A stretch of 38,052 nucleotides of DNA from Chloroflexi bacterium GWC2_73_18 (lineage in GTDB: Bacteria; Chloroflexota; Limnocylindria; Limnocylindrales; CSP1-4). The stretch covers positions 34,547-72,598 of the forward strand of contig MGMJ01000050.1 in assembly GCA_001794945.1 (NCBI GenBank). The letters are read 5' to 3'. The first letter of the stretch is position 1; the number at the start of each line of letters is the position of its first letter. Of the stretch, positions 3 through 33,656 are shown piece after piece. Both the position numbers and the translations under genes were made by a program. Under the pieces are notes generated by a model, which searched no databases, had not been told where the DNA came from, and was given only the letters and a program-made list of their open reading frames with translations.

Positions 3-1172
3 CCCTGCGACCGGGTCCTCAAGGCGATCGGCCAGGCGCCGGAGCTCGACTGGATGGCGCGTGGCGCCGACGGCGTCGCCGCCACGAAGCAGGGCCGCAT
101 CGCCGCCGACGCGGTCACCTTCGGCTCCGGGCGCACGGGCGTCTTCGCCTGCGGCGACGTGCGGATCGGCTCGTCCACCGTGGTCGAGGCGGTCGCCGAG
201 GGGCGGCGCTGCTCCTACGCCGTCGACGCCTACCTCAAGGGGATGGACCTGGGCGAGATCCGCACGCGCCAGACGCTTGCCGAGCCGCAGCCCGAGTTCC
301 TCAGCATCGTCCCCTACACCGGCGAGGCGAAGGAGCCGCGCCACCGGATGCGGGCCATGCCGGCCGCGGAGCGGCGGGCGCACTACGTCGAGTATGAGAT
401 CGCCTACACCCGCGAAGAGGCGATGGCAGAGTCGCAGCGCTGCCTGCAGTGCACCTGCGAGGCGATCGGCTTCTGCGACCTGCGCCGCCTCGGCATCGAG
501 TACGGCACGACACTGGCCACGCTCGAGCCGAAGCTCCACCGCGGCGCCGGTCACCGGAGCATCACCGAGAACCGCTTCACCGGCGTCAACCACGACTACA
601 TCCGCGACGATTCGCACGCCTTCATCCTCCGCGAGCCGGCGCGCTGCATCGACTGCGGCCGCTGCGCCCAGGTGTGCAAGGAGATCGTCGGCGCCGCCTG
701 CTACGACTTCATGCGCCTCGGCTTCGACACGCTGGTGACGACGCCGCTCGACATGAGCCTGAACGACACGCCATGCGTCTCCTGCGGGCGCTGCGCCGAG
801 ACCTGCCCGACCGGCGCGCTGATGCCGAAGCCGCGCATCCTCGAGAAATACGAGGTGGACGAGAGCCGCTGCATCCTCTGCGGTATCTGCGTCGACGCCT
901 GCCCCTACGACGCGCTCCGCTGCGGCCCCGACTTCGAGCTTGCCTCGACCAGCCGCGAGGAGCCCATGATCGACCTGATGGCCCTCGGCGCCCTCGAGCG
1001 CGACACCGAGATCAGCTACGTCCAGCGCGAGCGCGACTGGCTGGAGCGGGCGATCGCCGGCGGGCGCGCGCTCGAGGCGGGGCGGTCGCTGCCGGTCCTA
1101 CCGGCGGCCGTCCGCGGCGACGGGCGGGGCGCGGGCGGCGTCGGCCGCGGCGGCACAGCGCCCTCCGAGTGA
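3..1172 (+). CDS. 5'-truncated fusion protein: C-terminus of a GltD/SfrB-like FAD/NAD(P)-dependent oxidoreductase + NuoG-like Fe-S modules + NuoI-like C-terminal ferredoxin half
   Basis: The frame is open from base 3 (PCDRVLKAIGQ). GVFACGDV...TVVEAVAEGR is a GltD-type FAD C-terminal motif. Cys motifs: RCLQCTC..FCDL, RCIDCGRCAQVC, CVSCGRCAETCP, then YEVDESRCILCGICVDACPYDAL..GPDFELA (NuoI-like). It lies directly upstream of nuoJ. Confidence 0.85.
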   Translation, partial: PCDRVLKAIGQAPELDWMARGADGVAATKQGRIAADAVTFGSGRTGVFACGDVRIGSSTVVEAVAEGRRCSYAVDAYLKGMDLGEIRTRQTLAEPQPEFLSIVPYTGEAKEPRHRMRAMPAAERRAHYVEYEIAYTREEAMAESQRCLQCTCEAIGFCDLRRLGIEYGTTLATLEPKLHRGAGHRSITENRFTGVNHDYIRDDSHAFILREPARCIDCGRCAQVCKEIVGAACYDFMRLGFDTLVTTPLDMSLNDTPCVSCGRCAETCPTGALMPKPRILEKYEVDESRCILCGICVDACPYDALRCGPDFELASTSREEPMIDLMALGALERDTEISYVQRERDWLERAIAGGRALEAGRSLPVLPAAVRGDGRGAGGVGRGGTAPSE

Positions 1173-1188
1173 CGGGAGACACCAGGGC

Positions 1189-1734
1189 GTGACGATCCCC
1201 GCCACGGTGCCGGTCCTGGGCTGGGCCTGGGACGACCTCCTCTTCCTGGGTCTCGCCGGGATCCTGCTCGGTGCCGCACTGCTGGTCGTCCTCGGCCGCG
1301 ACATCATCCACTCGGGGCTCTGGATGATGCTCTGCTTCGGCGCGCTGGCGGGCGTCTACGCGCTCCTCGGCGCGCCGCTGGTGGCGGTCGCCCAGGTGCT
1401 CGTCTACGTCGGCGCCATCAGCGTCCTCGTCCTCTTCGCCATCATGCTGACCCAGTCGAAGGCGGGGCCGCTCCGCCTCGTCTTCCACCGCCAGGCCTGG
1501 GTCGCGGCGATCGCCTCGATCGTCTTGTTCGCCCTCTTCGTCGTCGTCGTGGCCGAGGGCGACTGGCCGCAGCGGGCCGCCGAGGTGACGCGCACCGCGA
1601 CCGATCAGCTAGCGCGCCTCCTCTTCAACGATTACGTCCTTCCCTTCGAGGGGGTCGGCGTCCTCCTCCTGGCGGCGGTGATCGGCGGCGTCTACCTGGC
1701 CAAGCGCGACCCGGGGCAGGGGGGTTCGCTGTGA
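1189..1734 (+). CDS. nuoJ: NADH-quinone oxidoreductase subunit J
   Basis: Hydrophobic; QVLVYVGAISVLVLFAIML and LFNDYVLPFE motifs; operon position. Confidence 0.95.
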   Translation: MTIPATVPVLGWAWDDLLFLGLAGILLGAALLVVLGRDIIHSGLWMMLCFGALAGVYALLGAPLVAVAQVLVYVGAISVLVLFAIMLTQSKAGPLRLVFHRQAWVAAIASIVLFALFVVVVAEGDWPQRAAEVTRTATDQLARLLFNDYVLPFEGVGVLLLAAVIGGVYLAKRDPGQGGSL

Positions 1735-2042
1735 GCGGGTCGCTCGATGCCTACCTGCTCCTCGCCGGCGCCCTCTTCTCCATCGGCGTCTTCGGCTTCC
1801 TGGCGCGCCGTAACGCGATCGCCATGCTGATGTCGATCGAGCTGATGCTCAACGCCGTCAACCTCGCCATCGTCACCTTCGGGGCGTTCGTGCCGGCGCT
1901 CACCACCCACGCCTCGGTGATCGCGCTGATGGTGATGGCGGTGGCGGCCGGTGAGGCGACGGTCGGCCTGGCCATCGTCATCGCCATCTTCCGCAACCGG
2001 CGGACGCCCCTCGTCGACGAGTACGACGCGATGCGCGAGTAG
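1731..2042 (+). CDS. nuoK: NADH-quinone oxidoreductase subunit K
   Basis: RRNAIAMLMSIELMLNAVN and AAGEATVGLAIVIAIFRNR; GTGA overlap with nuoJ. Confidence 0.97.
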   Translation: MSGSLDAYLLLAGALFSIGVFGFLARRNAIAMLMSIELMLNAVNLAIVTFGAFVPALTTHASVIALMVMAVAAGEATVGLAIVIAIFRNRRTPLVDEYDAMRE

Positions 2043-2057: not shown

Positions 2058-4030
<1,973 letters not shown>

Positions 4031-4034
<4 letters not shown>

Positions 4035-5560
4035 ACGGCGTGCCGATCCTCTCGCTCGTCACCTTCGTGCCCCTCCTCGGGGCGGTCCTCATCGCCTTCA
4101 TCCCGCGCGGCCACGTGCGGCTGATCCGTTACGGGGCGCTCGCCGCGTCGCTCGCCGCCTTCGCGCTCTCGCTGGCCGCGCTCGCCGACTTCGATCCCGG
4201 GGCGAGCGGCTTCCAGTTCGTCGAGCAGTGGGACTGGATCCCCGCCTTCGGCATCCGCTACAAGCTGGGGATCGACGGGATCAGCCTGGCCCTGGTGGTG
4301 CTGACGACGCTCCTCACCTGGATCAGCATCCTGGCCAGCTTCGGCCCGATCAGGGAACGGGTGAAGGAGTACATGATCTCCTTCCTCGTCCTCGAGGTCG
4401 GCATGATCGGCGTCTTCGTCGCCCTCGACCTCTTCCTCTTCTACGTCTTCTGGGAGATCGTGCTGGTGCCGATGTACCTGATCATCGGCATCTGGGGCGG
4501 CGCCAACCGGATCTACGCCACCATCAAGTTCGTCCTCTACACGCTCGTCGGCTCGCTCCTCATGCTGGTCGCCATCCTGGCGACCGCCTTCGCCTGGCAG
4601 GCGGGCCACGGCGGCGACTGGACCGGCGCCTTCGACTACGAGCAACTCCGCGGCTACGCCTTCGACGGGACGCTCCAGACGCTCGCCTTCGGCGCCTTCT
4701 TCCTGGCCTTCGCCATCAAGGTGCCGATGTTCCCCTTCCACACCTGGCTGCCCGACGCGCACGTCGAGGCGCCGACGGCCGGCTCGGTGATCCTGGCCGG
4801 CGTCCTGCTCAAGCTGGGCGGCTACGGCTTCATCCGCTACTCGCTGCCACTCTTTCCCGACGCCGCCCACGCCTGGGCGCCGGCGATCATCGTCCTCAGC
4901 GTCATCGCCATCGTCTACGGCGCGATCGTCGCCCTCGTGCAGCCCGACTTCAAGAAGCTGGTCGCTTACAGCTCGGTCAGCCACATGGGCTTCGTGACGC
5001 TCGGCATCTTCGTCTTCCAGCCCCAGGCGCTCGAGGGGGCGATCGTGCAGATGGTCGGCCACGGCCTGATCACCGGCGCCCTCTTCCTCTGCGTCGGGGT
5101 CCTCTACGAGCGGACGCACGACCGCGAGCTGGCGAAGATGGGCGGCCTGGCCGAGCCGGTCCCGCTCTACGCCGCCACGCTCGGCTTCTTCGCCCTCGCC
5201 TCGCTCGGCCTGCCCGGCTTGGCCGGCTTCGTCGGCGAGTTCCTCGTCCTGCTCGGCACCTGGGCGGTCAACCCGCCGGTCGCGGCGATCTCGGCAGGCG
5301 TCGTCATCCTCTCCGCCACCTACCTGCTCTGGATGTTCCAGCGCGTCGCCTTCGGCGAGCTGTCCGACTTCCTGCGCGGACTCGGCCAACACCTCACCGA
5401 CATGTCGCCGGTCGAGCTGCTGACGCTCAGCCCGCTGGTCGCGCTGACGGTCGTCTTCGGCCTCTTCCCGGCGCTCATCCTCGAGCTGCTCCACGGGCCG
5501 GTGGCGACCATCCTGGCGCGGACCGGCGGCGGCCTCGACCTGCTCGGGCTGGTGCGGTGA
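4031..5560 (+). CDS. nuoM: NADH-quinone oxidoreductase subunit M
   Basis: AFAIKVPMFPFHTWLPDAHVEAPTAGS, KKLVAYSSVSHMG. The GTG at 4031 overlaps the nuoL stop; the ORF-track start at 3791 is an upstream extension. Confidence 0.97.
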
Positions 5561-5576: not shown

Positions 5577-7088
5577 ATGACGTCGGCCGACCTGACCGCG
5601 CTGGCGCCGCTCCTGGCCGTCCTCGGCGTGGCGATCCTCGTGCTCGCGGTCGACTTCGTGCTGCCCGGCCGCGACGACCTGGCGGTCGCCCTCGGCGTCG
5701 TCGGGATCGTCGTCGTCGGCGCGGTCACCTGGGCGACCGGCGGGGGCGTCGATGGCGCGATCCAGTCGGCCTTCGGCGGCTCCTACGCCGTCGACGCGGC
5801 GACGACCTTCCTTGACCTCGTCTTCGTCGTCATCGCCCTGATCACGCTCCTCGTGGCGCCCGACTACCTGGGGCCGCGCGGCCTCCCCTTCGCCGAGTTC
5901 ACGGTGACGCTCCTCTTCGCCATCTCCGGCGCCTTCCTGATCGCCGGCTCGGCCGACCTGCTCGTCCTGTTCCTCGGCCTCGAGCTGCTCGTCCTGCCCG
6001 GCTACATGCTGGCTGGCTTCCACAAGCGAGAAGGGCTCTCCACCGAGGGCGCCATCAAGTACTTCCTGCTCGGTTCGTTCTCGAGCGCGATCTTCCTCTT
6101 CGGCCTCGCCTTCGTCTGGGGCTTCACCGGCACGACCCGGATCGCCGAGGTCGCCGCCGCGCTGGCCGGCGGGCCGCTCGGCCCCGGCCTGGCGATGGGT
6201 CTCGCCTTCCTGACGGCCGGCGCGGCCTTCAAGATCGCCGCCGTCCCCTTCCACTACTGGACGCCGGACGCCTACCAGGGCTCACCGACGCCGGTCACCG
6301 CGTACCTGTCGACCGGGCCCAAGGTCGCCGCGTTCGCCCTCATCCTGCGTGTCTTCGTCGAATCCCTCGGCGGGATCCGCGCCGAATGGGTGGGGGCGAT
6401 CGTCGTGCTGGCTGCGCTGACGATGACGCTCGGCAACCTGGTGGCGCTCACCCAGTCGAACCTCAAGCGGATGCTGGCCTACTCCTCGATCGCCCACACC
6501 GGCTACATCCTGGTCGGGCTCGCCGCCTTCGCCGCCGAGCCGGCCGGTGACCCGTCGCGCTCGGGGCTGGAGGGGATCCTCTTCTACACGGCCGCCTACG
6601 CCTTCATGAACCTGGGCGCCTTCGCCGTCGTCTCGGCGCTCCAGCGGCGCCCCGGCGTCACCAGCGAGATCGGCACCTACGCCGGCCTGATCCGACGGGA
6701 ACCCGTGGCGGCGGTGCTGATGGCCCTCTTCCTCCTCTCGCTGGTGGGCATCCCGCCGACCGCCGGCTTCTTCGGCAAAGCCTACGTCATCCTGGCCGCC
6801 GTCCAGTCGACCGACCCGGCGGTCGTGGCCCTCGCCGTGCTCGCCGTCCTGAACGCCGCGGCGGCCGCCTTCTACTACCTGCGCGTGGTCGTCTTCATGT
6901 TCATGCGCGAGGCGCCCGAGGGGATGCCGCCGGTCGGGCTGGGCGGCATCCTCCGCGAGCGGCGCCTCTTCCTCCTCTGGACCGGCCTCGCCGCGGCGGG
7001 CGTGGGGACGGTGGTCCTGGGGCTCTACCCGGTTCCCATCCTCGAGATGGTGGTCAAGGCGGCGGCGGCCCTCGTCGCGCCGGGGTAG
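5577..7088 (+). CDS. nuoN: NADH-quinone oxidoreductase subunit N
   Basis: EGAIKYFLLG, FKIAAVPFHYWTPDAYQGSPTPV, KRMLAYSSIAHTGY. Confidence 0.97.
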   Translation: MTSADLTALAPLLAVLGVAILVLAVDFVLPGRDDLAVALGVVGIVVVGAVTWATGGGVDGAIQSAFGGSYAVDAATTFLDLVFVVIALITLLVAPDYLGPRGLPFAEFTVTLLFAISGAFLIAGSADLLVLFLGLELLVLPGYMLAGFHKREGLSTEGAIKYFLLGSFSSAIFLFGLAFVWGFTGTTRIAEVAAALAGGPLGPGLAMGLAFLTAGAAFKIAAVPFHYWTPDAYQGSPTPVTAYLSTGPKVAAFALILRVFVESLGGIRAEWVGAIVVLAALTMTLGNLVALTQSNLKRMLAYSSIAHTGYILVGLAAFAAEPAGDPSRSGLEGILFYTAAYAFMNLGAFAVVSALQRRPGVTSEIGTYAGLIRREPVAAVLMALFLLSLVGIPPTAGFFGKAYVILAAVQSTDPAVVALAVLAVLNAAAAAFYYLRVVVFMFMREAPEGMPPVGLGGILRERRLFLLWTGLAAAGVGTVVLGLYPVPILEMVVKAAAALVAPG

Positions 7089-7937
7089 TCAGCCCGCCAG
7101 CAGCCCCGCCAGCTTGCCCAGCAGACGCGCCGCCGCGCGCGGCGAAGAGAGGAGCACGTCGGCGGCGCCGGCGACGTCGGGTGGCATCTCGGCATGCGAG
7201 TGGACCCCCACGGCCAGCCCGTCGAGGGCCCCCGTGGCGCGCCGTTCGCGCAGGACCAGGAACATCTCCGCGTCGGCGCGGTCGTCGCCCAGGACGACGA
7301 GGCCGGCCGGGCGCAGCTCGTCGACGAGGCGGCGGATCGTCTCGCCCTTGCCGGCGGCGTCGGGCGGGCGGAGCTCGATGACGCGCCGTCCTGCGTAGCG
7401 CCGGAAGACCGCGCCCGGGTCGGCCGACTCGATCGCCTCGGCGACGCGGAGGCGGGCCGCCTCGCCGTCGGAGGCGCCCCGGAAGTGGAAGGCGACCGAC
7501 GGACCCTTCGGCTCCACCACGAGCCAGGGCTCGGGAAGCGCCGCCGCCACGCGCCCGGCAACCTGCTCCGCCTCGACGGTGAAGGGCGCCAGCTCCGGGT
7601 CGTGCACGACGCGCATGGCGGCGGCGCGGCCGCGTCGGGCGAGCGAGGCGCGCTCGAGGCCGAAGTTGCCCAGGTAGGTCGCCCCGCCGACCCGCGCCCG
7701 CGCCGCGAGGTCGGTCACCGTGCGCCCGGAGAGGAGCACGACGTGGACACCCCGGAGCGCCGCCAGCTGCCTCAGGGCGCGCTGCGCGACCGGGAGGACG
7801 CGCGCCCCCCAGGGGTCGACGACGATCTCGCTCAGCGTCCCGTCGAAATCCGAGGCGACCAGGAAGGGGCGTCGGCCGCGCAGCGAGGCGAGGCGCCCGA
7901 GGGCGACCTCGAGCGCGGCGTCCGCGTCACGCCTCAC
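7089..7937 (-). CDS. otsB: trehalose-6-phosphate phosphatase (HAD IIB)
   Basis: C-terminal part of ORF 7089..9566. Motifs SDFDGTL, LLSGR, EPKGPSVAFHFR, GKGE and LGDDRAD. The GTG at 7937 overlaps the stop of the upstream gene. Confidence 0.85.
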   Translation of the reverse strand: MRRDADAALEVALGRLASLRGRRPFLVASDFDGTLSEIVVDPWGARVLPVAQRALRQLAALRGVHVVLLSGRTVTDLAARARVGGATYLGNFGLERASLARRGRAAAMRVVHDPELAPFTVEAEQVAGRVAAALPEPWLVVEPKGPSVAFHFRGASDGEAARLRVAEAIESADPGAVFRRYAGRRVIELRPPDAAGKGETIRRLVDELRPAGLVVLGDDRADAEMFLVLRERRATGALDGLAVGVHSHAEMPPDVAGAADVLLSSPRAAARLLGKLAGLLAG

Positions 7938-8683
7938 GTGTCGAAGACGACGCCCGGCAGGACCTTCCCCAGCCCATCCCCCATCTGCGGCGGCCCGATC
8001 CCGCCGAAGGCCCAGGCGCGCACGATCCCGTCGCGGTCGATCCAGAAGTGCACCGGCATGACCCAGGCGGCCCAGAAGGCCCGCGTCTTCCCGTCCGGGT
8101 CGACGCCGACCGGGAAGGTCAGGCCCATCTCCTCGGCGAAGGCGGCGGCCGTCTCGGGCGACTCCTGGATATCGACGCCGATGACCACCAGGTCGAGCTC
8201 GGGATGGCGGGCGACGAAGCTGGCGATCAGCGGCAGCTCGTCGCGGCAGGCGAGGCAGGTGCTCGCCAGGAAGTTGACCCAGACCGGGTGACCGCGGTGG
8301 GCGGCCAGGTCGATCGTCCCGCCACCGAGGCGATCGACGACGAGGGGCGGGGCGAGGTCGCCGACCTGGAGGCCGGTCGTCGGGCTGCCGGAGGCGGCCG
8401 GTGAGCCGCTCTCCGGGGGAGACGGGCTCGTCCCGGGGGACGGCTCGAGCGACCCCGAGGGCAGGACCGAGGCGGAGGGGACGACCGGGGCGGAGGGCGA
8501 CTCGGGCGGAGGCGACGAGGGAGAGGCGGCGGGTGGCGGGCTCGGCGTGGGCGCCGGCGGCGGGGTCCGCGTCGCCGGGTCGGGCGCGTTCGCGACAAGG
8601 GCGCCGATCACCAGGACGACCAGCACGAGTCCGGCGACGAACCCGAGCAGGACCGGCGCGAGGCTGCGAGCGCGTCGTGACAC
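7934..8683 (-). CDS. membrane-anchored TlpA/ResA-family thiol-disulfide oxidoreductase
   Basis: N-terminal TM, Ser/Pro-rich linker, GDLAPP, WVNFLASTCLACRDELP (CxxC), MPVHFWIDRDGIVR. Confidence 0.88.
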   Translation of the reverse strand: MSRRARSLAPVLLGFVAGLVLVVLVIGALVANAPDPATRTPPPAPTPSPPPAASPSSPPPESPSAPVVPSASVLPSGSLEPSPGTSPSPPESGSPAASGSPTTGLQVGDLAPPLVVDRLGGGTIDLAAHRGHPVWVNFLASTCLACRDELPLIASFVARHPELDLVVIGVDIQESPETAAAFAEEMGLTFPVGVDPDGKTRAFWAAWVMPVHFWIDRDGIVRAWAFGGIGPPQMGDGLGKVLPGVVFDT

Positions 8684-8690
8684 GGCGGGC

Positions 8691-8696
8691 AGTGTA
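8691..8696 (-). promoter_or_regulatory. -10 element (TACACT) of a probable leaderless tlpA-otsB transcript
   Basis: TACACT on the minus strand, 7 nt before the GTG at 8683; no SD sequence. Confidence 0.55.
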
Positions 8697-8762
8697 CGCG
8701 ACGAAGACGGTGCGAAGCGTCAACGGAACCCGGTCCGGGAACGCGGCGTCGTCGGAAGGCGC

Positions 8763-8771
8763 TGCTACGAT
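8763..8771 (+). promoter_or_regulatory. extended -10 (TGcTACGAT) of the leaderless sortase-like gene
   Basis: TG-n-TACGAT, 6 nt before the GTG at 8778. Confidence 0.55.
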
Positions 8772-8777
8772 TCGCCC

Positions 8778-9482
8778 GTGAGCCTCCTGACGCGTCTGCT
8801 CGGCCGCCTCCTGCGCCGTCTCGTGCCGGCGCTCCTGACCGCCTCCGGCGTGACGCTCCTCGTCGCCGGGCTTCTCTCGTACGACGCGACCGCCGGCCCG
8901 AGCCCCACGCCCCCGGCGACGACCAGCCCCTCGCCGGCGCCCACCTCCGGTCCGACGCCCTCGCCGGGATCCACCACCCCCGGGCCATCGGAGAGCCCGG
9001 CGCCGGGCGGCGTCGCCAGCCGCATCGCCATCCCCGCCCTCAAGATTGACCTGCCGGTCGTCGAGGGACCCCCCGGTTACCCCTACTGCGACGTGGCGAT
9101 GTACCTCAAGGAGTACTCCCAGCCCGGCCGGCCCGGCACGACCTACATCTTCGCCCACGCCCGAAAGGGGATGTTCCTGCCGCTCCTGGAGGCGTCCCTC
9201 CGCAGCAACGGGAAGTCGATGCTCGGCGCTCTCGTCCTCGTCTACACCACCGACGACCAGCTCTTCCTCTACGAGATCGACCGGGTCAAGCGCCACGCCC
9301 TCGACTTCTCGCTTGCCGACGAGCTCCCCGATGGGGTGACCGAGCAGCTCGTCCTGCAGACATCCGAGGGGCCCCACGGCACCAAGCCCAAGCTGCAGGT
9401 CCGCGCCAGGCTCCTCTACGTCACGACCGCCGATCACGAGCTGGCCAACCCCGAGCCGCACATCGATCGCTGCGGCTTCTAG
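8778..9482 (+). CDS. sortase-fold membrane protein with an atypical active site (LQTS instead of LxTC)
   Basis: N-terminal TM and Pro/Ser/Thr linker, then RIAIPALKIDLPVVEG, PGRPGTTYIFAHAR (catalytic His position) and LVLQTSEG..KLQVRA. Confidence 0.75.
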   Translation: MSLLTRLLGRLLRRLVPALLTASGVTLLVAGLLSYDATAGPSPTPPATTSPSPAPTSGPTPSPGSTTPGPSESPAPGGVASRIAIPALKIDLPVVEGPPGYPYCDVAMYLKEYSQPGRPGTTYIFAHARKGMFLPLLEASLRSNGKSMLGALVLVYTTDDQLFLYEIDRVKRHALDFSLADELPDGVTEQLVLQTSEGPHGTKPKLQVRARLLYVTTADHELANPEPHIDRCGF

Positions 9483-11606: not shown

Positions 11607-12275
11607 ATGAGCCCGGTCACCGGCGATCGCTCGTTCGTCGGCGTGGGCCTGCGCCAGCGGGTCCGCGAGGCGGTGGTCCCGCTCGCCCGCGCCCTCGGAA
11701 GGCTCGGGCTGACGCCCGACGCACTCACCCTGATCGGCTTTGCCGTCTCCGTGGTCGCGGCACTCGCCGCGGCGGCCGGCCTCTGGGTGGCGGCCGGGCT
11801 CCTCGTCGTCTTCGGCGGCCTCTTCGATCTCTTCGACGGCGCCCTCGCCCGAGTCCAGGGGAAGGCCTCGCCCTACGGCGCCTTCCTCGACGCCACCTTC
11901 GACCGCTGGGGTGAGACGGTCGTCTTCATCGGCATCGCGGCCGGGCTGCTGGGCCCGGGCGCCGCGGGAGTCGTCTTCCCCGCCCTGGGCGAGTGGCCGG
12001 CGGCGGCGCTGGTCGCCGTCCTCGCCGGAGCGGCGATGGGGGCCGCCTTCATGGTCAGCTACAGCCGTGCGAAGGCCGAGAGCGTGGGCTTCGAGGCGGC
12101 TGTCGGTGTCGCACCGCGGGCAGAGCGCATCGCCGTCCTCGCCGCCGGTCTCGTCCTCCAACCGGCGACCGGCTGGAGCCTCGGAGCCGCGCTCCTCATC
12201 ATCTTCGCCCTCGCCACCGTCACCGTCATCCAGCGCGTCGCGCACGTCCGCGCCCAGGCGCGTACGGGGCGTTGA
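11607..12275 (+). CDS. pgsA: CDP-alcohol phosphatidyltransferase, phosphatidylinositol-phosphate synthase-like
   Basis: TPDALT and DLFDGALAR...[10 protein letters not shown] signature; [10 protein letters not shown]...RAER resembles PIP synthases; adjacent to ino1. Confidence 0.85.
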
Positions 12276-12301
12276 GCGGGCCAACTCAAGGAGACCGAGC
12301 A

Positions 12302-13522
12302 GTGGAGCAACAGCAGACCGCCGGCGGTGGCAACGGCCGGGCGCCGCGACGCCGCGACGGCAAGATCCGGGTCGCCATCGTCGGCGTGGGGAACTGCGCC
12401 AGCTCGCTCGTCCAGGGCCGCTACTACTACGAGAACGCCGAGCGGGGTCAACCCATCCCGGGCATCATGCACGTCGAGCTGGGCGGCTACCACATCCGCG
12501 ACATCGAGTTCGTGGCCGCCTTCGACATCGACCGCAACAAGGTCGGTCGCGACCTCGGCGAGGCGATCTACGCGGCGCCGAACAACACCTACGTCTTCAA
12601 GCAGGTCGGCACGCTCGGCGTCCCCGTCGAGCGCGGCATGACCCACGACGGCCTGGGCAAGTACCTGAGCCGCGTGATCGAGAAGGCGCCCGGCCCGACC
12701 GCCGACATCACCGGCATCCTGCGCGAGCGGGAGGTCGACGTCGTCGTCTCCTACCTGCCGGTCGGCTCGGAGGAGGCGACCAAGTGGTACGTGGAGCAGT
12801 GCCTCCGCGCCGGCGTCGCCTTCGTCAACTGCATCCCGGTCTTCATCGGTCGCGAGCCCTACTGGCAGCGCCGCTTCGTCGAGGCCGGCGTCCCGATCAT
12901 CGGCGACGACATCAAGAGCCAGGTCGGCGCCACGATCACCCACCGCGTGCTGACCCGCCTCTTCATGGATCGCGGGGTCAAGCTCGAACGCACCTACCAG
13001 CTCAACTTCGGCGGCAACACCGACTTCCTCAACATGCTCGAACGCGAGCGGCTCGAGTCGAAGAAGATCTCCAAGACGAACGCGGTCACCTCCATGCTGG
13101 ACTACGAGATCGCCGAGGGTGACGTGCACGTCGGCCCCAGCGACTACGTCCCCTGGCTCGACGACCGCAAGTGGTGCTACATCCGGATGGAGGGGACGAC
13201 CTTCGGTGACGTGCCGCTCAACGCCGAGCTCAAGCTCGAGGTGTGGGACAGCCCGAACAGTGCCGGCGTGGTGATCGACGCCATCCGCTGCGCCCGGCTC
13301 GGCCTCGACCGTGGCCTCGCCGGCACGCTCGTCGCGCCGTCGGCCTACTTCATGAAGAGCCCGCCACGCCAGCTGCACGATGACGAGGCCCGCGAGCTGG
13401 TCGAGGCATTCATCGCCGGCCGCGACGCGAGCGTGCTGACCGGCAGCGAGCCGGCGACGGCGCGGTCCCGGCCCACCCGCCGCGCCGCCGCCGGTCGTGC
13501 CCGGTCCGGGACCGACCGCTGA
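12302..13522 (+). CDS. ino1: myo-inositol-1-phosphate synthase
   Basis: [61 protein letters not shown] start at 12302 after AAGGAG. Confidence 0.97.
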
Positions 13523-13530
13523 GGCCGGCC

Positions 13531-14562
13531 GTGCAGCCGCGCATGATGGGCCTCCGACGGCCGGGCGGCGCCGAGGGCGCCCCCCACCGCCGGCCCGCCC
13601 GGCGGCGGAGCCGGCTCACGGTCACCATCCAGGAGCGCCCTGTCCTGCTCGGCTGGCGCGCCCTGGAGTGGTTCTTCGCCCGCATGCCGCCACGCCTTGC
13701 CGTGGCGGCGATGCGGGGGCTCTACACGCTCGCCTACTACGCCTGGCCGCCCAAGGCCGAGGTGATGCGCTCGAACATGGCGCACGTCATGGGCTGGCCC
13801 CGCGACGACGCGCGCACGGCGGCCATGGCCCGGCGTTCCTACCGGACGTACGGGCGGTACCTGGCCGAGCTCCTCCGCCTCCCGTCGCGCCCGCGCGAGG
13901 AGGTGAGCGGCCTGATGGACGAGCACCAGCTCGAGAGCTTCATGTCGCTGCGCGAGGGATCGCACGGGATGATCGTCGCGTCGGCCCATCTCGGCAACGG
14001 CGAGGCGATGGTCGCCGCCTTCGCCCACCTCGGACTCCCGAGCAACGTCCTGGCCGACGACAGCTCGCAGCTCGAGCTCTTCGAGTATCTCAACGCCCAG
14101 CGGTCGCGCTGGGGCGTGCGCATGGTCCCGTGGCGCAACCTGCGCGAGGTCTACCGCATCCTGCGGCGGGGCGAGATCCTGGGGATCACCGTCGACTGGG
14201 GCTACCGGCCCGGCGACGTGCCGGTGCGCCTCTTCGGCACCTGGACCACGCTGCCGGCCGGCCCCGCCACCCTTGCCGCGCGGACCCGGGCGCTGATCCT
14301 GCCGATCTTCTCGTACCGCCAGTCGAACGGCCGCTACTTCGCCTTCCATACCGAGCCGATCCGGGTCGCCGACGACGCGCCGGCGACGATCCAGCAGGCG
14401 ACACAACGGATCGCCGAGGCGCTCGAGGAGGCTGTGCGCCGGGCGCCCGAGCAGTGGTACAGCTTCAAGCGCGTCTGGCCACGCACGGCCGAAGAGCAGC
14501 TCCGCCTCGAGACGCGGGCGGCCGAGCTGCTCGGCGCCGGGGCACGGGCGGGGAGCGCGTGA
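13531..14562 (+). CDS. LpxL/HtrB-superfamily acyltransferase, PatA (PIM acyltransferase)-like, copy 1
   Basis: SAHLGNGE (Hx4E), GDVPVRLFG..PAGPATLA, PEQWY. The start codon is uncertain. Confidence 0.85.
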   Translation: MQPRMMGLRRPGGAEGAPHRRPARRRSRLTVTIQERPVLLGWRALEWFFARMPPRLAVAAMRGLYTLAYYAWPPKAEVMRSNMAHVMGWPRDDARTAAMARRSYRTYGRYLAELLRLPSRPREEVSGLMDEHQLESFMSLREGSHGMIVASAHLGNGEAMVAAFAHLGLPSNVLADDSSQLELFEYLNAQRSRWGVRMVPWRNLREVYRILRRGEILGITVDWGYRPGDVPVRLFGTWTTLPAGPATLAARTRALILPIFSYRQSNGRYFAFHTEPIRVADDAPATIQQATQRIAEALEEAVRRAPEQWYSFKRVWPRTAEEQLRLETRAAELLGAGARAGSA

Positions 14563-15575
14563 GGCCGATGGCCGCCACCGTCGCTCCGGCCGCGCCAGAC
14601 CAGGGGACCGCGTCGGCGACGCTCCTCGACCGAGCCGGCGCGACGCTCGTCTCGCTCATCTCGTGGATCGCCTGTCGCCTCCCCGACCGGCCGCTCCATC
14701 GGATCGCGGGGCTCGTCGGGCTCGGCTGGTACCTCCTCGCGCCGCGCCGGCGGGCGCGGGCGCGGCGCAACCTGCGGCGGGTCGCCGAGGCGCTGGCGGC
14801 CGACGGGCGGGCGGGCCCGCGCATCGCGGCCGCGGCCCGCGACCGGCGCGCGCTCGAACGGCTGGTCCGCGACGCCTTCCGCCACAATGCCCGCTACTAC
14901 CTGGAGGTCGCCCTGGCGCCCTCCTACGACGAGCGCTGGCTCGCCGAGCGGATCGTCAACGAGTCGCCCGAGCTGATCGAGGAGGCGTTCGCGGGAGGGC
15001 GCGGCGCGGGTCGGACGCCCGGGCACGCCGTCATCTTCGCCGGCCTCCACTTCGGGGCGATCGAGTTGCCCGCCTTCTTCCTGACCCAACGCGTCGGCCT
15101 GCGCGTCGTCGCCCCGATGGAGACGATCCGCGACACGCCACTGCAGCGCTACTTCGTGCGCACCCGCGGGGCGGTGGGCCTGCAGCTGGTGACGCTGCGG
15201 ACCGCGCGGCGCGAGGCGTCGCGCGCGCTGGCGCGCGGCGAGGCGGTCGGGCTGGTGACCGACCGCGACATCACCGGCGGCGGCATCGACGTCCCGCTCT
15301 TCGGCCACCCCGCCCCGCTGGCGGTGGGAGCCGGCCTGCTCGCCATCGAGTCGGGTGCGCCGGTCTACGTGGCCGCCGTCAGGCGGCTCGACGACGGCCG
15401 CTACGCCGGCAGCATCGTCCCGCTCCCCGTGCCGGCCGACGGGACGCGACGCGAGCGGCTGGAGCGCTTCCTGCGCGACCAGGCGGCGATCTTCGAGTCG
15501 TTCATCGCCGCGGCTCCGGAACAGTGGTGGTCGGTCTTCTTCCCCATCTGGCCCGACCTCGAGGTGGCGTCGTGA
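14559..15575 (+). CDS. LpxL/HtrB-superfamily acyltransferase, PatA-like, copy 2
   Basis: GLHFGAIE (Hx4E), TDRDITGGGIDVPLFG, PEQWW..PIWPD. Start is the GTG at 14559 (overlapping the upstream stop) or the ATG at 14568. Confidence 0.85.
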   Translation: MRPMAATVAPAAPDQGTASATLLDRAGATLVSLISWIACRLPDRPLHRIAGLVGLGWYLLAPRRRARARRNLRRVAEALAADGRAGPRIAAAARDRRALERLVRDAFRHNARYYLEVALAPSYDERWLAERIVNESPELIEEAFAGGRGAGRTPGHAVIFAGLHFGAIELPAFFLTQRVGLRVVAPMETIRDTPLQRYFVRTRGAVGLQLVTLRTARREASRALARGEAVGLVTDRDITGGGIDVPLFGHPAPLAVGAGLLAIESGAPVYVAAVRRLDDGRYAGSIVPLPVPADGTRRERLERFLRDQAAIFESFIAAAPEQWWSVFFPIWPDLEVAS

Positions 15576-16342
15576 CGAAACGCCTCGGCAAGGCCGACCT
15601 CCACATCCACTCGGTCGCCTCGGACGGGACCGCGACCGTCGGGGAGATCCTCCGTTTCGCCGAGGAGCAGACCGACCTCGACGTGATCGCCGTCACCGAC
15701 CACGACCGCGTCGATGCCGCGCTCCACGCCAGGGAGCTGGCGCGACGACGCGGTGGCCGCGTCGAGGTGATCGTCGGGGAGGAGGTCTCGACGCGCAGCG
15801 GGCATCTGCTCGCGCTCTTCGTCGAGGAGCGGATCCGGCCCTGGCAGCCGCTCCGCCGCTCGGTCGCGGAGATCCACGAGCAGGGCGGCCTGGCGATCCC
15901 GGCGCACCCGCTGGCACCGTATCCGATCTGTATCCGGCGGGGCGCGCTCCTCTCCATCGTGGAGGACGCCGATCCGCTCCTCTACTTCGACGGCCTCGAG
16001 ACATTCAACCCCTCCTACGCGGGTCGCACCCACCACCGCGCCACGGCCGAGCTGAATGAGCGGCTCCACCTCCCGGCGATCGGCAACAGCGACGCCCACG
16101 TCACCTCGCTCATCGGCTGCGCCTACACGACCTTCCCGGGCCGCACGACAGAGGACCTGAGGCGGGCGATCCTGCTCGGCCGGACCCACGCCCACGGGCA
16201 GTTCCTCGACCTGCCGGCGGAAGTGCGCATCTACGGGCGGCAGCTGCGCAAGTACGCCCGCGATGTCCGCGACGACCTGCGGCGGGCGATCCTCGGCCGC
16301 GGCTCCGGCCGCGACCTCGGGATCCGCAAGGAGTCCTCGTGA
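15572..16342 (+). CDS. PHP-family metal-dependent phosphoesterase
   Basis: ADLHIHS..SDG, VTDHD, GEEVST..GHLL, AHP, GNSDAH. The GTG at 15572 is coupled to the upstream stop. Confidence 0.9.
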   Translation: MTKRLGKADLHIHSVASDGTATVGEILRFAEEQTDLDVIAVTDHDRVDAALHARELARRRGGRVEVIVGEEVSTRSGHLLALFVEERIRPWQPLRRSVAEIHEQGGLAIPAHPLAPYPICIRRGALLSIVEDADPLLYFDGLETFNPSYAGRTHHRATAELNERLHLPAIGNSDAHVTSLIGCAYTTFPGRTTEDLRRAILLGRTHAHGQFLDLPAEVRIYGRQLRKYARDVRDDLRRAILGRGSGRDLGIRKESS

Positions 16343-17601
16343 GGATCGGCCTCGTCACTCCCTACATCTACCCGCTCCCCGGCGGCGTCAACGAGCACGT
16401 CCGCTACCTCTACCAGGAGCTGCGGGCGCGCGGCCACGAGGTGCGCATCATCAGCGCCAGTCACGGGCTCCAGCCCGGCCAGGATGGAGACGTCATCCGC
16501 GTCGGCAAGGGGTTCTCGGTCCCTTCCAACGGCTCGATGGGCAACCTGACCGTTTCGCCCCGCTTCAACTCGCAGGTTCGCGCCCTGCTCGATCGCGAGC
16601 GCTTCGACCTGCTCCACTTCCACGAGCCGTTCGTGCCGTTCCTCTCGCTGGTGACCCTCCGCCAGTCGACCAGCGTCAACATCGCCACCTTCCATGCCTA
16701 CGCCGGCTGGAGTCTCGCCTACGAGTTCGGCCGGCGTGCCCTGCGCGGCTACGCCGCGCGCCTCCACGGCCGGATCGCCGTCAGCGCCGCCGCCCGCCAT
16801 TTCGCCGACCGCTACTTCCCCGGCGACTACAAGGTGATCCCCAACGGCGTCGACCTCTCGCGCCTCGAGGGCGCCGAGCCGATCGAGCGCTGGCGCGACG
16901 GCACGAAGAACGTCCTCTTCGTGGGGCGTTTCGAGCCTCGCAAGGGGCTGCTTCACCTGCTCAAGGCATACCGGCTCCTGCGCAAGGCGGGCTGCGACTG
17001 CCGGCTCCTCGTCGTCGGCACCGGCCCGCAGGAGCGCGAGGTGCGACGCTACATCATGACCCGCCGCATGGGCGGGGTCGAGCTGCTCGGGCGCGTCTCG
17101 GACGCCGATAAGGCGCGGCTCTTCGCCACGGCCGACGTCTTCTGCTCACCGGCGACCGGGGGCGAGTCGTTCGGCATCGTCCTGCTCGAGGCGATGGCGG
17201 CCGGTCGTCCGATCGTCGCCTCGGACATCCACGGCTACAAAGGCGTCGTCCACCGTGATGAGCAGGCGCTCCTCGTCCCGCCGCGAGATCACCGCGCCCT
17301 CGCCGGGGCGCTCGGCCGGCTCCTCGCCGACGAGGAGCTGCGGCGGTGGATGGGCGAGGCCGGGCGGCTGCGGGCGGCCCAGTTCAGCTGGGAGCGCGTC
17401 GCCTCCAAGGTGGACGACTACTACGGCTTCGTCATCCGGCGCCTGGCCGCTCAGGGAGCGCTGCCGTCGGGCTTCCGCGCCGAGGTCCCGCCGGCCCCGC
17501 CGCGCGCCGCCGAACGGTCCGGGTCGATCGCCGCGGAGGCACCCGTGGCAGCGCCGGCCGCGGCCGACCCGATCGGCCGCCAGCCGGCCGTCGCTCAGTA
17601 G
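16339..17601 (+). CDS. pimA: GT4 glycosyltransferase, PimA (phosphatidylinositol alpha-mannosyltransferase)-like
   Basis: MRIGLVTPY..PGGV..HV, HFHEP, GRFEPRKG and GGESFGIVLLEAMAAG parallel mycobacterial PimA motifs; same operon as pgsA and the acyltransferases. Confidence 0.8.
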   Translation: MRIGLVTPYIYPLPGGVNEHVRYLYQELRARGHEVRIISASHGLQPGQDGDVIRVGKGFSVPSNGSMGNLTVSPRFNSQVRALLDRERFDLLHFHEPFVPFLSLVTLRQSTSVNIATFHAYAGWSLAYEFGRRALRGYAARLHGRIAVSAAARHFADRYFPGDYKVIPNGVDLSRLEGAEPIERWRDGTKNVLFVGRFEPRKGLLHLLKAYRLLRKAGCDCRLLVVGTGPQEREVRRYIMTRRMGGVELLGRVSDADKARLFATADVFCSPATGGESFGIVLLEAMAAGRPIVASDIHGYKGVVHRDEQALLVPPRDHRALAGALGRLLADEELRRWMGEAGRLRAAQFSWERVASKVDDYYGFVIRRLAAQGALPSGFRAEVPPAPPRAAERSGSIAAEAPVAAPAAADPIGRQPAVAQ

Positions 17602-18492: not shown

Positions 18493-18505
18493 GACTAGGA
18501 CTAGG
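18493..18505. repeat. tandem CTAG motif GACTAGGACTAGG (inverted copy at 25497-25509)
   Basis: Read directly. A further CGGACTAGG copy lies at 18466-18474. Confidence 0.6.
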
Positions 18506-21500
18506 CGCGGTCCACCCCCGCCCCGAGCGCGTCCGACGCGCCGTCGCCGGGGGCCCCGGTGCGTCGGGCCCAGACCGCGTAGCCCGTCGCCGCGGCGAAG
18601 AACCCGGTGCCGGCGACGAAGAGGAGCGGCCAGGGGCCCAGGATCGAGGTGGCGTTCGCCGGCGCGGTGTTGACCGCGAACTGGAACGAATAGTCCCAGG
18701 TGGGCAGAAGGCGCTGATACGAGTACGCCTCCGGGTCGGCCGGCAGCGGCAGGCCCGAGATGTTCGGGTAGACGGCCAGGAAGTAGAGCGCGGCCGCCGC
18801 CAGCGCCACCATCACGTAGCGGCGAGGGTCGCGCGCGCCGAGTACCAGCCAGCCGAGCGCCCCCGCGAGGGCCAGGTAACCGACGACCAGCACGACCGCG
18901 GTGGTGATGAGGGCGCGGGTCGAGCCGGGGTCGAGGCTGCCCGAGCCGGTGCAGAGGTAAGCGCCCGGGTTGACCTGCCCGACGCCGGCGGCGGCGCAGA
19001 GCGGGTCCTTGAGCAGCCAGAGCAGCCCGGGCGCCATGATCGTCACCGCGGCCACGGCGCGGGCGAACTGCCAGGTGCGACGCGAGGGGCCGTGCCAGAG
19101 CTCGGCCAGGAAGTAGGCGAGCAGGAGCAGCGCGAAGGGGAGCGCCGTGTACCAATGGTACTGGAAGGTGGCGCGGTCGATGCGCGCCCAGGGGAGCCAC
19201 TGGGAGAGGAACGCCAGGACGACGAAGCCGAGCGCCGCGCTGCGTCGCCCCCAGGCCTGCCAGGCGCCGAAGGCCGCCGCCGGGACGGCCAGCCAGAAGA
19301 GGACCAGGTTGCCCATGTCGAAGATGTAGCCCTGCGTCCCACCGCCGTACGCCTGCGATGAGAACCAGACCGGCTTGAGATCGAACGGCCAGGCCCACCA
19401 GGGCGACGAGGCGGGGTGCGTGGCGCGCAGGTGGTCGTGGTAGTCGTACATGCCACCCTGCAGGTCGACGAAGAGCTGGCCCTCGTGGCCGGGTGGCCAG
19501 CCTGGCACGATCTGCGGGCCGCCGGCGTGCCACGGCATCGCCCACGGGACGTAGCTGAGCACGTAGACCGCCAGCGGCAGCGCGGTGAGGGCGAGGAGCG
19601 CCAGAAGGAAGGGGGCGCCGCCCAGGCGGACCGGGTCCGCCCAGCGCGGCTCGACCCGTCCAGCCACGGGGCGGAGCACGATCCCCGCGGCGAGCAGGGC
19701 GGTCAACCCGACCATCAGGCCGAAGAAGAAGAGGTTCGGCGGCGTCTGGACGACGGCCAGGTAGCCGAGGACGCCGGTCAGCACGACCATCCCCGCGAGC
19801 GCCAGGAGCCGCCCGGCACTCGAGCGGAACAGGACGATCAGCACCGCGCCGCCGATGGCGTAGGCGCCGACCCACTTCGCCGCCAGCGCCAGGCCGAGCA
19901 GGCCGCCGATGGCCGGCAGCCCGAGGAGGACGGCCAGGCGCCCGGTCCGGCCGGCCGGCGGGTCGATGAGCAGCCAGGCCAGCGCCAGGTAGGCGGCCAC
20001 GATGAAGAGGCCGACGTAGGTGTCGTTCATGGCGATCCGCGAGGTGGCGAAGAGCATCCCGTCGAGCAGCGCGACCACCGCCACCAGGAGCCCGACGGCA
20101 CGCCGCCGGAAGAGCCGGCGCGCCAGCAGGTAGAGGGCGGCCGCCAGCAGCACGCCGGCGACGACACCGGGGAAGCGCCAGGCGAAGGCGTTGCCGCCCG
20201 TGTCAACGGCGGCGACCCGGCCGCCGGCCTCGAAGACGAGCGCCTCCTCGCGGTCCAGCGCCGGGGTGTCCCGGGCGGCGTCAAGCACCAGGACGGCCGG
20301 GCGGAAGGGGAGGGCCGCGTCGGCGAAGACGGCGTTGGCGTGGGGCTCGACCACGTAGATCGTGGAGCGGCCGTCCGGCGTCTCGCCGAGCACGTGGACC
20401 AGGTTCGTCGCGGCGTTCCAGCGCACCTCGCCGACCGGTCCTGGCATCGCGAAGCCGGATCCCGGTCGGGGCGGCCCGTCGTCGCCCAGCTGGAACGTCT
20501 CGATGCGGGCGCCTTCCGTGGCGACGTAGAGCGTCGGCCGGTCGAGGCCGCCGACGCGGTCGAGGCCGGTCGCCGCCGCCGTCAGCGGCTCCTGGTCGAT
20601 CGTCTCGAGGGAGACCGCGTCGAGGATGGAGAGTCCGCTCCCGGCGGCCACGGCGAGCGCCTCGCGGTCGGTCACCTCGATGCCCGGCAGGTCGCCCGCG
20701 TCGATGGCGGCCTGCAGCTCGCTGCGCTGCTCGGCAGTCAGGTAGGAGGCGAGGCGGAGCTCATCGCCGCCGGCGCGGAGCCGCGCCGCGAGCGAGGCGC
20801 CGGAAACGCCGAGGACGTCGCCGAGGCGCGCGCCGGCCGCCTCCGGGTCGGTCACCTGCGCCGGATGGGCGACCAGGCTGCTGACCCCGCTCAGCGGGAT
20901 CGCGGCGGCCAGGCCCGGCACCGTCGCCGCGCCGGCCACTTCGCCCGTTTCCGGGTCGAGGCTGCTCAACCGGTCCCCCGCGCCGCGCAACACGACACGC
21001 CGGCCGGCGACCCAGAGCCGCTGGACGGGGCCTTCGACGCGCCCGACCTCGACGGGCTGCGCCGCCTGCGGCTCGCCGCCGACGCTCCGCAGGAGGTCGA
21101 GCCGGCCGGTCTCGAGCTGCCAGACGAGGCCCGTGTCGGTGCCGACGTAGAGCCGGTGCGCCGAGCTGTCGACGGCGACCGCGGAGGCTCCGTTGACGGA
21201 GAGGCGCGACTCGTCCTCACGGGAGAGCAGGTCGAGGACGCGGACGGCCGAGCCGGTGGCCACGAAGAGCCGGTCGCCGGCGCGCCGCTGCGGCTCGAGC
21301 GGGTCGGCGTAGCGCGGCTCGACGGCGACGTCGCGGACAGGCGTCCCGAGCGAGCTCTCGCCGGTGACGCGATCGTCGCCGAAGAGCACGATCCCCGCCG
21401 CGATCAGGTACTTCGCCAGGTGGGGGTGCGTGTACTCGTAGATGTCGTGCGGCATCCCGTAGCGCCAGTCCTGCAGGAACTCGGTCGCCGTTCGCGCGTG

Positions 21501-23360: not shown

Positions 23361-23390
23361 TCGGTCCGGCCTCCTGGACGAGCGACGAAG

Positions 23391-30643: not shown

Positions 30644-30671
30644 CGCGGGTGCGTGCGGGGCCGCAGCCGCG

Positions 30672-33651: not shown

Positions 33652-33656
33652 CCCGA

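Follow-up and report, generated by a model that had tools for sequence, protein, structure and literature searches.

Few bioenergetic machines are as conserved as respiratory complex I, whose textbook electron donor is NADH. By what route do electrons enter a complex I whose last peripheral-arm gene, directly upstream of nuoJ, encodes an iron-sulfur flavoprotein ending in half of a NuoI subunit? Such a gene opens the 38,052-nucleotide stretch of DNA analysed here (the window), which comes from Chloroflexi bacterium GWC2_73_18 (2.93 Mb in 137 contigs, 89.6% complete), spans positions 34547-72598 of contig MGMJ01000050.1 (C50) and has a GC content of about 0.70-0.76. When the window was read together with its upstream sequence, NuoI was found to be split around a three-gene flavoprotein module. 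This layout is real and conserved, and it is not described in the literature searched.

The open reading frame (ORF) at positions 3..1172 of the window (+ strand, 389 codons) is open at the 5' edge and stops at a TGA (1170-1172), 16 nt short of the nuoJ start at 1189. It is the 3' part of a gene of about 856 codons for an NfnA/StnC-like Fe-S flavoprotein fused to the C-terminal half of NuoI (G'-Ic). The first 445 codons lie upstream at C50 33198-34533, in a different frame as written (L009 16199-17533, where L009 is C50 17000-36999, taken for the upstream reading, with coordinates counted from there). Profile scans used Pfam and NCBIfam models. The upstream part matched the Pfam domains Fer2_4, Fer4_20 and, over positions 2-216, Pyr_redox_2. 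The window opens with the end of the same GltD/NfnL-type domain, which binds flavin adenine dinucleotide (FAD) and NAD(P)H (3..245, +): positions 228-291 of Pyr_redox_2 (the last 64 of 291) align with residues 2-67, TIGR01317 with residues 5-80 and PRK12771 with residues 1-152, the GltD-type NCBIfam models spanning 1-152. The Pyr_redox_2 score of 23.6 bits falls just below the cut-off of 26.1 because the window contains the tail of the domain only.

A CxxCxCx5C motif follows (441..476, +; C147, C150, C152 and C158). It aligns with the corresponding Cys motif of StnC (8oh5_C) and NfnA (9bov_A) and is a probable [4Fe-4S] site. Next comes a ferredoxin-like domain of the HydA/HoxU/NuoG type with two CxxCxxCxxxC motifs (645..809, +; C215/218/221/225 and C258/261/264/268-P), matched by Fer4_Nqo3 at residues 208-273 (Pfam) and by FeFe_hydrog_A6 at 185-278 and HoxU at 188-277 (NCBIfam). 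The C-terminal half of NuoI (834..974, +) contributes the second CxxCxxCxxxCP motif (C290/293/296/300-P301) and an FE.A-type flank; three Fer4 stretches are found in the ORF. The remaining tail (975..1172, +) has a conserved helix at about residues 336-352 and a Gly-rich, low-complexity end of variable length in an alignment of 15 C-terminal parts of the protein (alignment A2). An AlphaFold2 monomer of the window fragment had a mean predicted local distance difference test (pLDDT) score of 39.3, the helix at 336-352 being visible in an otherwise poor model. All 16 cysteines of the window part are invariant in 15 of 15 aligned homologues. Every motif that an earlier note, made from the sequence alone, had listed for this gene is present: the GltD-type FAD end, the CxxCxCx5C and CxxCxxCxxxC motifs and the second half of NuoI.

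The NuoI model, TIGR01971 (121 positions, cut-off 113.05 bits), matches the C-terminal segment with positions 71-117 at residues 278-324, at 56.6 bits and E 1.7e-15 in the locus scan and at 46.5 bits and E 5.7e-12 genome-wide. The match is far beyond chance, since the next unrelated match in the genome reaches only E 1.5e-5. The corresponding part of P0001, a full-length homologue of the window protein that served as the query for comparison with the PDB, is matched by the NuoI chains 8qby_I and 7ar7_I. The assignment of this segment to NuoI, on which the earlier note had made its reading depend, is therefore borne out by the model.

The missing half begins 3.5 kb upstream of the window, immediately after nuoH. 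There, a 277-codon gene whose start overlaps the nuoH stop (L009 14008-14841) encodes a protein that matches positions 1-67 of TIGR01971 at residues 9-82 (57.3 bits, E 1.1e-15; 57.4 bits genome-wide) and PDB NuoI chains at residues 9-92, while its residues 121-266 match NuoE, HoxE and FDH-gamma models. A NuoF-like gene (L009 14851-16206; Complex1_51K, SLBB, NADH_4Fe-4S) follows, and after it the flavoprotein gene. The two NuoI pieces account for 114 of the 121 model positions, on separate proteins. NuoI is therefore split, with positions 1-67 after nuoH, positions 71-117 before nuoJ and an NfnABC/StnABC-like module between them; the fusions are in frame at both module ends, the N-half to a NuoE-like domain and the C-half to a NuoG-N/GltD protein. 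The earlier note had suggested that the first NuoI motif may lie upstream, with the oxidoreductase inserted inside NuoI; the gene order agrees with this, but the halves belong to two genes and not to one polypeptide with an insert. No intact NuoI was found in the genome: TIGR01971 gave 11 matches, none over the cut-off, and the two halves scored best. The standalone nuoI that would have spoken against the note's proposal is absent from this genome, and a relative assembled as a single contig (G021) likewise had no intact NuoI, only the two halves and a hydrogenase-type ferredoxin.

The gene is interrupted in the assembly by a run of 13 N at C50 34534-34546 (L009 17535-17547), directly before window position 1; gene callers would split or truncate it. 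A run of N within a gene, with a frame shift across it, is what one would expect of an assembly chimera, a frameshifted pseudogene or a scaffolding error, and yet several lines of evidence make the probability of any of these negligible. Public metagenome contigs were compared over L009 16900-18200. One contig each in runs X5 and X6, which come from studies other than those of the near-identical X1 and X3, joins L009 17534 to 17548 with 63 bases in place of the gap, giving 22 codons in frame (1+63+2 = 66 nt). The loose ends of X1 and X3 contigs extend past both edges of the run and, translated by eye, read in frame and GltD-like. Four full-length database homologues have 22 residues at this position (full-length homologues measure 849-877 aa, and the best 120 database homologues were listed at 694-899 aa). 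Eight of eight relatives, with contigs of 125 kb to 3.68 Mb, carry both parts of the gene in one uninterrupted frame, 66-69 nt apart. The chimeric assembly that the earlier note had considered is excluded by the bridging contigs and the continuous genes of the relatives.

The operon comprises 13 genes in the order nuoA-B-C-D-H-[I(N)::E]-F-[NfnA-like::I(C)]-J-K-L-M-N, the window opening in the last peripheral-arm gene. Little space separates the genes, and in several cases the start overlaps the stop of the gene before. The membrane subunits NuoA, H, J, K, L, M and N are all encoded together, with Pfam matches over cut-off to the membrane-arm set (Oxidored_q4, NADHdh, Oxidored_q3, Oxidored_q2 and three Proton_antipo_M). 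Within the window, on the + strand, nuoJ (1189..1734; Oxidored_q3, E 1.2e-35) has a GTG start behind GGGAGA, nuoK (1731..2042; Oxidored_q2, E 1.5e-23) overlaps the nuoJ stop, nuoL (2058..4034) matches Proton_antipo_M at 3.9e-87 and Proton_antipo_N at 3.9e-22, nuoM (4031..5560; Proton_antipo_M, 1.1e-78) has a GTG start overlapping the nuoL stop, and nuoN lies at 5577..7088 (Proton_antipo_M, 3.2e-71). In the quinone module, NuoB keeps the tandem-Cys CC...C...CP ligands of cluster N2 and NuoC is present by Pfam. The best PDB match of NuoD is Thermus thermophilus Nqo4 (E 1.7e-92); the protein keeps the His of HPSTHG and a Tyr, which we take to be quinone-site residues, in place of NiFe cysteines. 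The locus thus has the membrane arm and the quinone module (NuoB, C and D) of a complex I. It has neither a single NuoI holding N6a and N6b nor the canonical NuoE/F/G N-module. Canonical NuoG was not found in the genome, TIGR01973 covering only positions 1-98 and 117-214 in the operon. The earlier note had left open whether the flavoprotein acts instead of or alongside NuoEFG: it stands alongside NuoE- and NuoF-like subunits, and it is canonical NuoG that is absent.

Genome-wide, the NuoF and NuoE families occur at one further place each and NuoG at two, all on contig C137. The cluster in question (C137 25443-30270, L144) encodes a 626-aa NuoE-NuoF fusion, a protein of the NuoG-N/Fe4S4 type and a molybdopterin subunit with one in-frame TGA, possibly for selenocysteine; it is probably a soluble NAD-linked formate dehydrogenase. 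These genes were considered as a second nuoEFG that could form a true N-module and were rejected as such, as they sit with molybdopterin oxidoreductase genes. A further NuoH/NuoD pair lies in a small group-4 [NiFe]-hydrogenase-like cluster (C100 1651-6891, L143) with NuoL-, NuoH-, NuoC- and NuoD/NiFeSe-like genes, the sole other complex I relative found in the genome.

The closest structures identify the module. P0001 matched 9bov_A (E 5.7e-158), 9n5u_A (E 3.7e-139) and 8oh5_C (E 1e-138) over residues 37-767, and all three module proteins share their best PDB entries (9BOV/9BP5, 8OH5/8OH9 and 9N5U/9N5V). Entries 9BOV/9BP5 are Caldicellulosiruptor saccharolyticus NfnABC, according to the accessible part of PMC11829005; 8OH5/8OH9 match Sporomusa ovata StnABC, the length of chain C (1172) being that of StnC in the portion of PMC10482914 available. 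As far as these two accounts go, the FAD of the GltD/NfnL-like domain receives its electrons from NADPH, and Fe-S clusters connect this flavin to the subunit that binds flavin mononucleotide (FMN). The earlier note had pointed to GltD/SfrB-type domains; the nearest relatives are NfnABC/StnABC rather than SfrB alone. NF009454 (PRK12814, 657 positions) matches the upstream part with positions 4-394 (416 bits) and the window part with positions 426-632 (89.9 bits), both scores lying under the 916-bit equivalog cut-off, so that the protein does not belong to GltD/PRK12814.

The FAD branch is strictly conserved. All 15 full-length proteins compared keep the 2Fe-2S cysteines, both C-x3-C-x3-C motifs in the cluster domain of the GltD type, the GxGxxG of the FAD site, the GGGxxxxD of the NAD(P)H site, a YRR motif and the Arg that corresponds to StnC R239; all 15 have His where StnC has its cluster ligand K170. 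The upstream part of this genome's gene shows the same motifs. The NuoF- and NuoE-like parts score under the cut-offs of their canonical models. The NuoF-like protein reached 368.7 bits with TIGR01959 against a cut-off of 558.65, and the NuoE-like part 46.7 bits against 142.4. In the PDB, the NuoF-like protein scored 380-414 bits with 9bov_B, 8oh5_B, 9n5u_B and HydB chains, compared with 276-285 bits for canonical NuoF, and it aligned to positions 103-530 only of the 584 in 9bov_B. Pfam detected Complex1_51K, SLBB and NADH_4Fe-4S in it and no Fer4 domain. Clusters B2-B5 are absent because the protein has neither the N-terminal stretch (about 100 residues) nor the ferredoxin domain at the C-terminus. 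The best PDB matches of the NuoE-like part are 9bov_C, 9n5u_C and 8oh5_A. Among 17 N-half fusion proteins (alignment A1), four, this genome's included, have four Cys in an unusual CxCxxC...C arrangement, five have three Cys, and in eight the thioredoxin-like domain is gone; as far as aligned cysteines can tell, the NuoE-like domain is losing its [2Fe-2S] site across homologues. Homologues are 52-61% identical to this genome's protein for NuoF-like, 55-71% for the N-half fusion, 69-80% for NfnA-like and 71-82% for NuoD, conservation being lower in the first two than in the last two.

Do the two NuoI halves meet? We know of no solved complex I structure in which NuoI is other than a single subunit, and each NuoI-type chain among the PDB matches is a NuoI/TYKY subunit in its own right. 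In any 2x[4Fe-4S] ferredoxin, each cluster takes cysteines from both motifs. The C-x2-C-x2-C-x3-C-P motif of the N-half (four Cys and Pro) is invariant in 17 of 17 sequences. In an AlphaFold2 monomer of the 277-aa protein, the NuoE-like blocks had pLDDT values of 76-97 and residues 25-115, with the NuoI half, fell below 50; the low values fit a half-domain in need of a partner and may equally reflect the 17-row alignment. Prediction of a complex of the two halves (window protein residues 200-350 and N-half residues 1-120, with four 4Fe-4S clusters) gave scores of 0.38, 0.37 and 0.38, and three control pairs reached 0.00 at best. The runs share at least 80% of contacts, with a partner pLDDT of at least 56. 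Of 80 solved complexes, 58 reach the pass mark, as do 2 of 110 mismatched pairs, and passes at a score of 0.60 or less comprise only 7 of the 80 solved complexes plus both passing mismatches.

From these elements it is fairly probable, judging from the sequences, that the operon encodes a quinone-reducing complex I fed by NADH at FMN and by NADPH at FAD, with the NuoI clusters held between two polypeptides and no electron bifurcation. The two halves would join into one 2x[4Fe-4S] ferredoxin fold in which N6a and N6b are each ligated by cysteines of both polypeptides, and the input module would thereby be bolted to NuoB, NuoD and NuoH. Hydride from NADH would pass to the FMN of the NuoF-like subunit and hydride from NADPH to the FAD of the GltD-type domain, both flavins feeding single electrons into one Fe-S network. 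The ferredoxin-like/Fdh-like branch of Nfn and Stn is described as a dead end and a non-functional remnant in the available parts of PMC10482914 and PMC11829005; here, the corresponding branch would be the exit, by way of N6a, N6b and N2 to quinone. Quinone reduction would drive proton pumping through the normal membrane arm. Bifurcation would not be part of the mechanism; it is unlikely because clusters B2-B5, and mostly also C1, are absent.

Several observations weigh against this proposal. The complex prediction lends weak support to pairing of the halves, and likeness to solved NuoI structures may drive its score. Ligands of N1a are incomplete or their domain missing in 13 of 17 NuoE-like parts. 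In 9 of the 16 NuoF-like sequences that could be read, Ser, Thr or Ala stands at the second Cys position of N3 (Ser here), and six of these nine have an extra upstream Cys, a possible substitute. The position aligned to the NADH-site Glu is E, G, Q or D, while the FMN loop RGRGGxG is kept. The NADH input may be altered or secondary, since constraint seems weaker on the FMN branch than on the FAD branch. The preference for NADPH over NADH at the FAD site is inferred from motif likeness to StnC/NfnA and from the YRR motif, which we take to be a mark of NADPH specificity. Two nucleotide sites on one wire could short-circuit the NADH and NADPH pools. Finally, PntB was found in 30 of 31 relatives, this genome included, so that an NADPH inlet is not needed to link the pools; a missing transhydrogenase was considered as the reason for the NADPH port and rejected on this count.

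The same chain of clusters could be run the other way. Were the FAD site an outlet, passing electrons from NADH, or from quinol driven by the proton-motive force, to NADP+, the enzyme would be a membrane-bound, non-bifurcating Nfn-like transhydrogenase or NADPH generator built on complex I. The homologous Nfn and Stn enzymes are reversible and produce NADPH in vivo, as reported in the accessible portions of PMC10482914 and PMC11829005, and a single Fe-S chain joins FMN and FAD in their structures, with all of its ligands kept here. On the other side, electron transfer from NADH to NADP+ without ferredoxin as co-reductant would have no driving force at cellular ratios, and PntAB is already at hand in nearly all relatives. 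Quinone reduction must be a main job of the enzyme because it is the only complex I found in the class. We consider an outlet unlikely, though it is the most credible of the alternatives.

It is much less credible that the NuoI halves stay apart, the third motif of the window protein pairing with the second as a clostridial-type 2x[4Fe-4S] ferredoxin and the N-half persisting as a remnant or anchor. Fer4_7 and Fer4_9 do align motifs two and three together (residues 258-304), the 21-residue spacing from C268 to C290 lies within the range usual for short ferredoxins, and the complex prediction gave no more than the weak support for pairing stated above. However, motifs one and two together match the ferredoxin-like domain of HydA, HoxU and NuoG, so that motif three has nothing to pair with. 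Model positions 1-67 and 71-117 are exactly complementary, the genome has no other NuoI to carry electrons to N2, and invariance of the N-half motif across several Chloroflexota classes would not be expected of a remnant. Slightly less probable still is a bifurcating or confurcating complex I of the Nuo-Bfu type with ferredoxin as third partner. The nearest relatives of the module are Bfu-family enzymes, and such a class has been predicted in what is available of PMC9304861; against it, the NuoF-like protein lacks the B2-B5 domains and so falls outside Bfu as defined by BfuB, and ligands of the C1 [2Fe-2S] cluster are incomplete or missing with their domain in the same 13 of 17 sequences. We therefore retain the quinone-reducing, doubly fed complex I as the preferred reading.

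Every one of the 41 genomes searched in the family and order, this one among them, has the N-half fusion protein (the match in G040 is partial). In an even sample of the class, 285 of 301 genomes matched at E <=1e-5, distributed over five families as 89/91 (f1), 12/12 (f2), 82/92 (f3), 99/103 (f4) and 2/2 (f5); the tally includes 11 unpublished genomes (G126, G117, G268, G186, G152, G311, G258, G121, G179, G098 and G141). Among the 103 matches listed for f1 and f2, 53 reach query residue 250 or beyond and 50 stop at 166-242, as expected for proteins without the NuoE thioredoxin-like domain; the f4 matches listed cover nearly the whole query at 38-43% identity. The operon order was identical in ten of ten loci read in Limnocylindria (seven from f1, one from f2, two from f4). 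In f3 and f5, a separate cluster nuoB-D-[I(N)::short E]-F-[NfnA-like::I(C)] is found, with nuoH on another contig (L049-L050, genomes G043 and G052).

In a phylum sample, 184 of 401 genomes, the unpublished G471, G558, G446 and G621 among them, matched at E <=1e-12. A short form of the fusion (query residues ~8-190, ORFs of 230-256 aa) also occurs in three further families (f29, f10 and f47), and a four-gene cluster nuoB-[I(N)::short E]-F-[NfnA-like::I(C)] was read in four loci (L053-L056, from G636, G354, G332 and G432). The three of these genomes searched with the NuoD and NuoI families (G636, G354 and G432, of f29/f47) also encode a canonical complex I, its NuoI intact (140-142 bits), and a second NuoD elsewhere. 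At 50% clustering, 54 protein clusters matched at E <=1e-30, many of them fragments, with no new architecture. The close relatives are recorded as Candidatus Limnocylindrales, Candidatus Limnocylindrus and Chloroflexota metagenome-assembled genomes (MAGs), and the f29 type as Ktedonobacterales MAGs. A cultured carrier, sought through homologues of the short form, was not found; the only names borne by these homologues are Ktedonobacterales MAG, "ferredoxin" and "hypothetical". By record titles and metagenome runs, carriers come from soil, peat, lake and groundwater samples. No RNA run was listed among the sequencing runs with this locus, which speaks neither for nor against its expression.

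Taken further, the locus may represent a proton-pumping complex I that accepts NADPH directly and has three ports (FMN/NADH, FAD/NADPH and quinone), so that the respiratory enzyme itself would set the balance of the NADH and NADPH pools; N6a and N6b would lie at a two-polypeptide interface, an Nfn/Stn-type operon having landed inside nuoI, and the enzyme would be the sole complex I found in Limnocylindria and a second isoenzyme in Ktedonobacterales and other Chloroflexota. We put this wider picture forward tentatively, as possible but somewhat short of probable. A natural, conserved two-chain NuoI would show that the ferredoxin fold of an electron wire can form from two chains, and the locus records how a new input module was grafted, by insertion of an operon into a gene. 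If the FAD site does feed NADPH electrons to quinone, models of the respiratory chain of widespread uncultured soil, groundwater and lake bacteria need to change, and a natural template for engineering NADPH-driven proton pumping would be at hand. The "dead-end" cluster branch of Nfn/Stn becomes a testable evolutionary link with complex I. Automatic annotation labels the proteins "FAD-dependent oxidoreductase", "formate dehydrogenase major subunit", "ferredoxin" or "hypothetical"; because of such labels, metabolic reconstructions may score complex I as lacking NuoI and NuoG.

Other genes of the window were noted in passing. Directly after the nuo operon come a gene of the AhpC/TSA-redoxin type, whose N-terminal region is rich in Pro and Ser (7934-8683, -), and a gene with a sortase domain (8547-9482, +). 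A set of lipid genes at 11607-17601 (CDP-alcohol phosphatidyltransferase, myo-inositol-1-phosphate synthase, lipid A-type acyltransferase and GT4 glycosyltransferase) presumably resembles that for phosphatidylinositol-mannoside synthesis. Further on are an ORF of 1789 aa with the protein-O-mannosyltransferase domains PMT, PMT_4TMC and PMT_2 (18501-23870, -), a 761-aa ORF with no Pfam match (26818-29103, -) and a DciA-family gene (29115-29507, -). The genes recF (29504-30739, -), dnaN (30672-31790, -) and dnaA (32057-33595, -) face yidC (34471-35952, +) and a jag/R3H gene (35769-36950, +); the interval 29504-36950 looks like a replication-origin neighbourhood.

Among known systems, a split or fused NuoI was not described in the literature searched, including the accessible text of PMC3144371, PMC4758237, 10.1101/2025.03.13.643058, PMC9304861 and 10.1101/2021.02.01.429150, whose supplements and figures may list such clusters. 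A gltD-related flavoprotein replaces NuoI in Mbx-like operons (Degli Esposti 2015, PMC4758237, in the part available). There, as here, a GltD-type NAD(P)H flavoprotein occupies the NuoI position of a complex I relative. Those operons, however, are of the Mbx/hydrogenase type, occur in Thermotoga and proteobacteria and are thought to reduce NAD(P)+, and NuoE/F and a split NuoI are not described for them in that text; the present locus has a quinone-type NuoD. Nuo-Bfu and Mbh-Bfu membrane complexes have been predicted by Schut et al. (2022), and, in the accessible sections of that paper (PMC9304861), clusters B2-B5 and C1 define the bifurcating Bfu enzymes and Dehalococcoides Mbh-Bfu is said to hold an extra flavin site. 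These complexes resemble the present one in that a Bfu-type module is encoded amid the genes for a complex I or an Mbh; Nuo-Bfu differs in its full bifurcating BfuBC core, its position at nuoEFG and its separate NuoI, and those sections do not mention a split NuoI. Dehalococcoides Mbh-Bfu was considered as the same system and rejected, three Dehalococcoides-like genomes giving only weak matches (E ~1e-14, residues 202-276).

The PRK12814/SfrB-type "putative NADPH-dependent glutamate synthase small subunit" (NF009454) differs from the protein described here, which has the added NuoI C-half and a complex I context. With canonical complex I (Nqo1-14, the PDB 4HEA/2FUG family) the locus shares the seven membrane subunits, NuoB, C and D and both NuoI motifs. 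Canonical operons have nuoE and nuoF between nuoD and nuoH, whereas the nuoE/F-like genes lie here between nuoH and nuoJ; NuoI is on two polypeptides, the molybdopterin-like domain of NuoG is absent, an FAD/NAD(P)H domain and two 4Fe-4S sites come in addition, and the ligand sets of N1a and N3 are non-canonical. With NfnABC/StnABC the module shares the order of 2Fe-2S, GltD/NfnL-type FAD domain, Cys cluster motif and ferredoxin-like domain, and it keeps the ligands for FAD, NADPH and clusters. Those enzymes, by contrast, are soluble tetramers bifurcating to ferredoxin. Where their subunit A has an Fdh-like C-domain (~470 residues in StnC), the present protein has the NuoI C-half; subunit B is here without its N- and C-terminal cluster domains; subunit C bears the NuoI N-half and is mostly without a cluster; and the K170 ligand of StnC is replaced by His. 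The branch that ends blindly in NfnABC/StnABC would here be the route to quinone.

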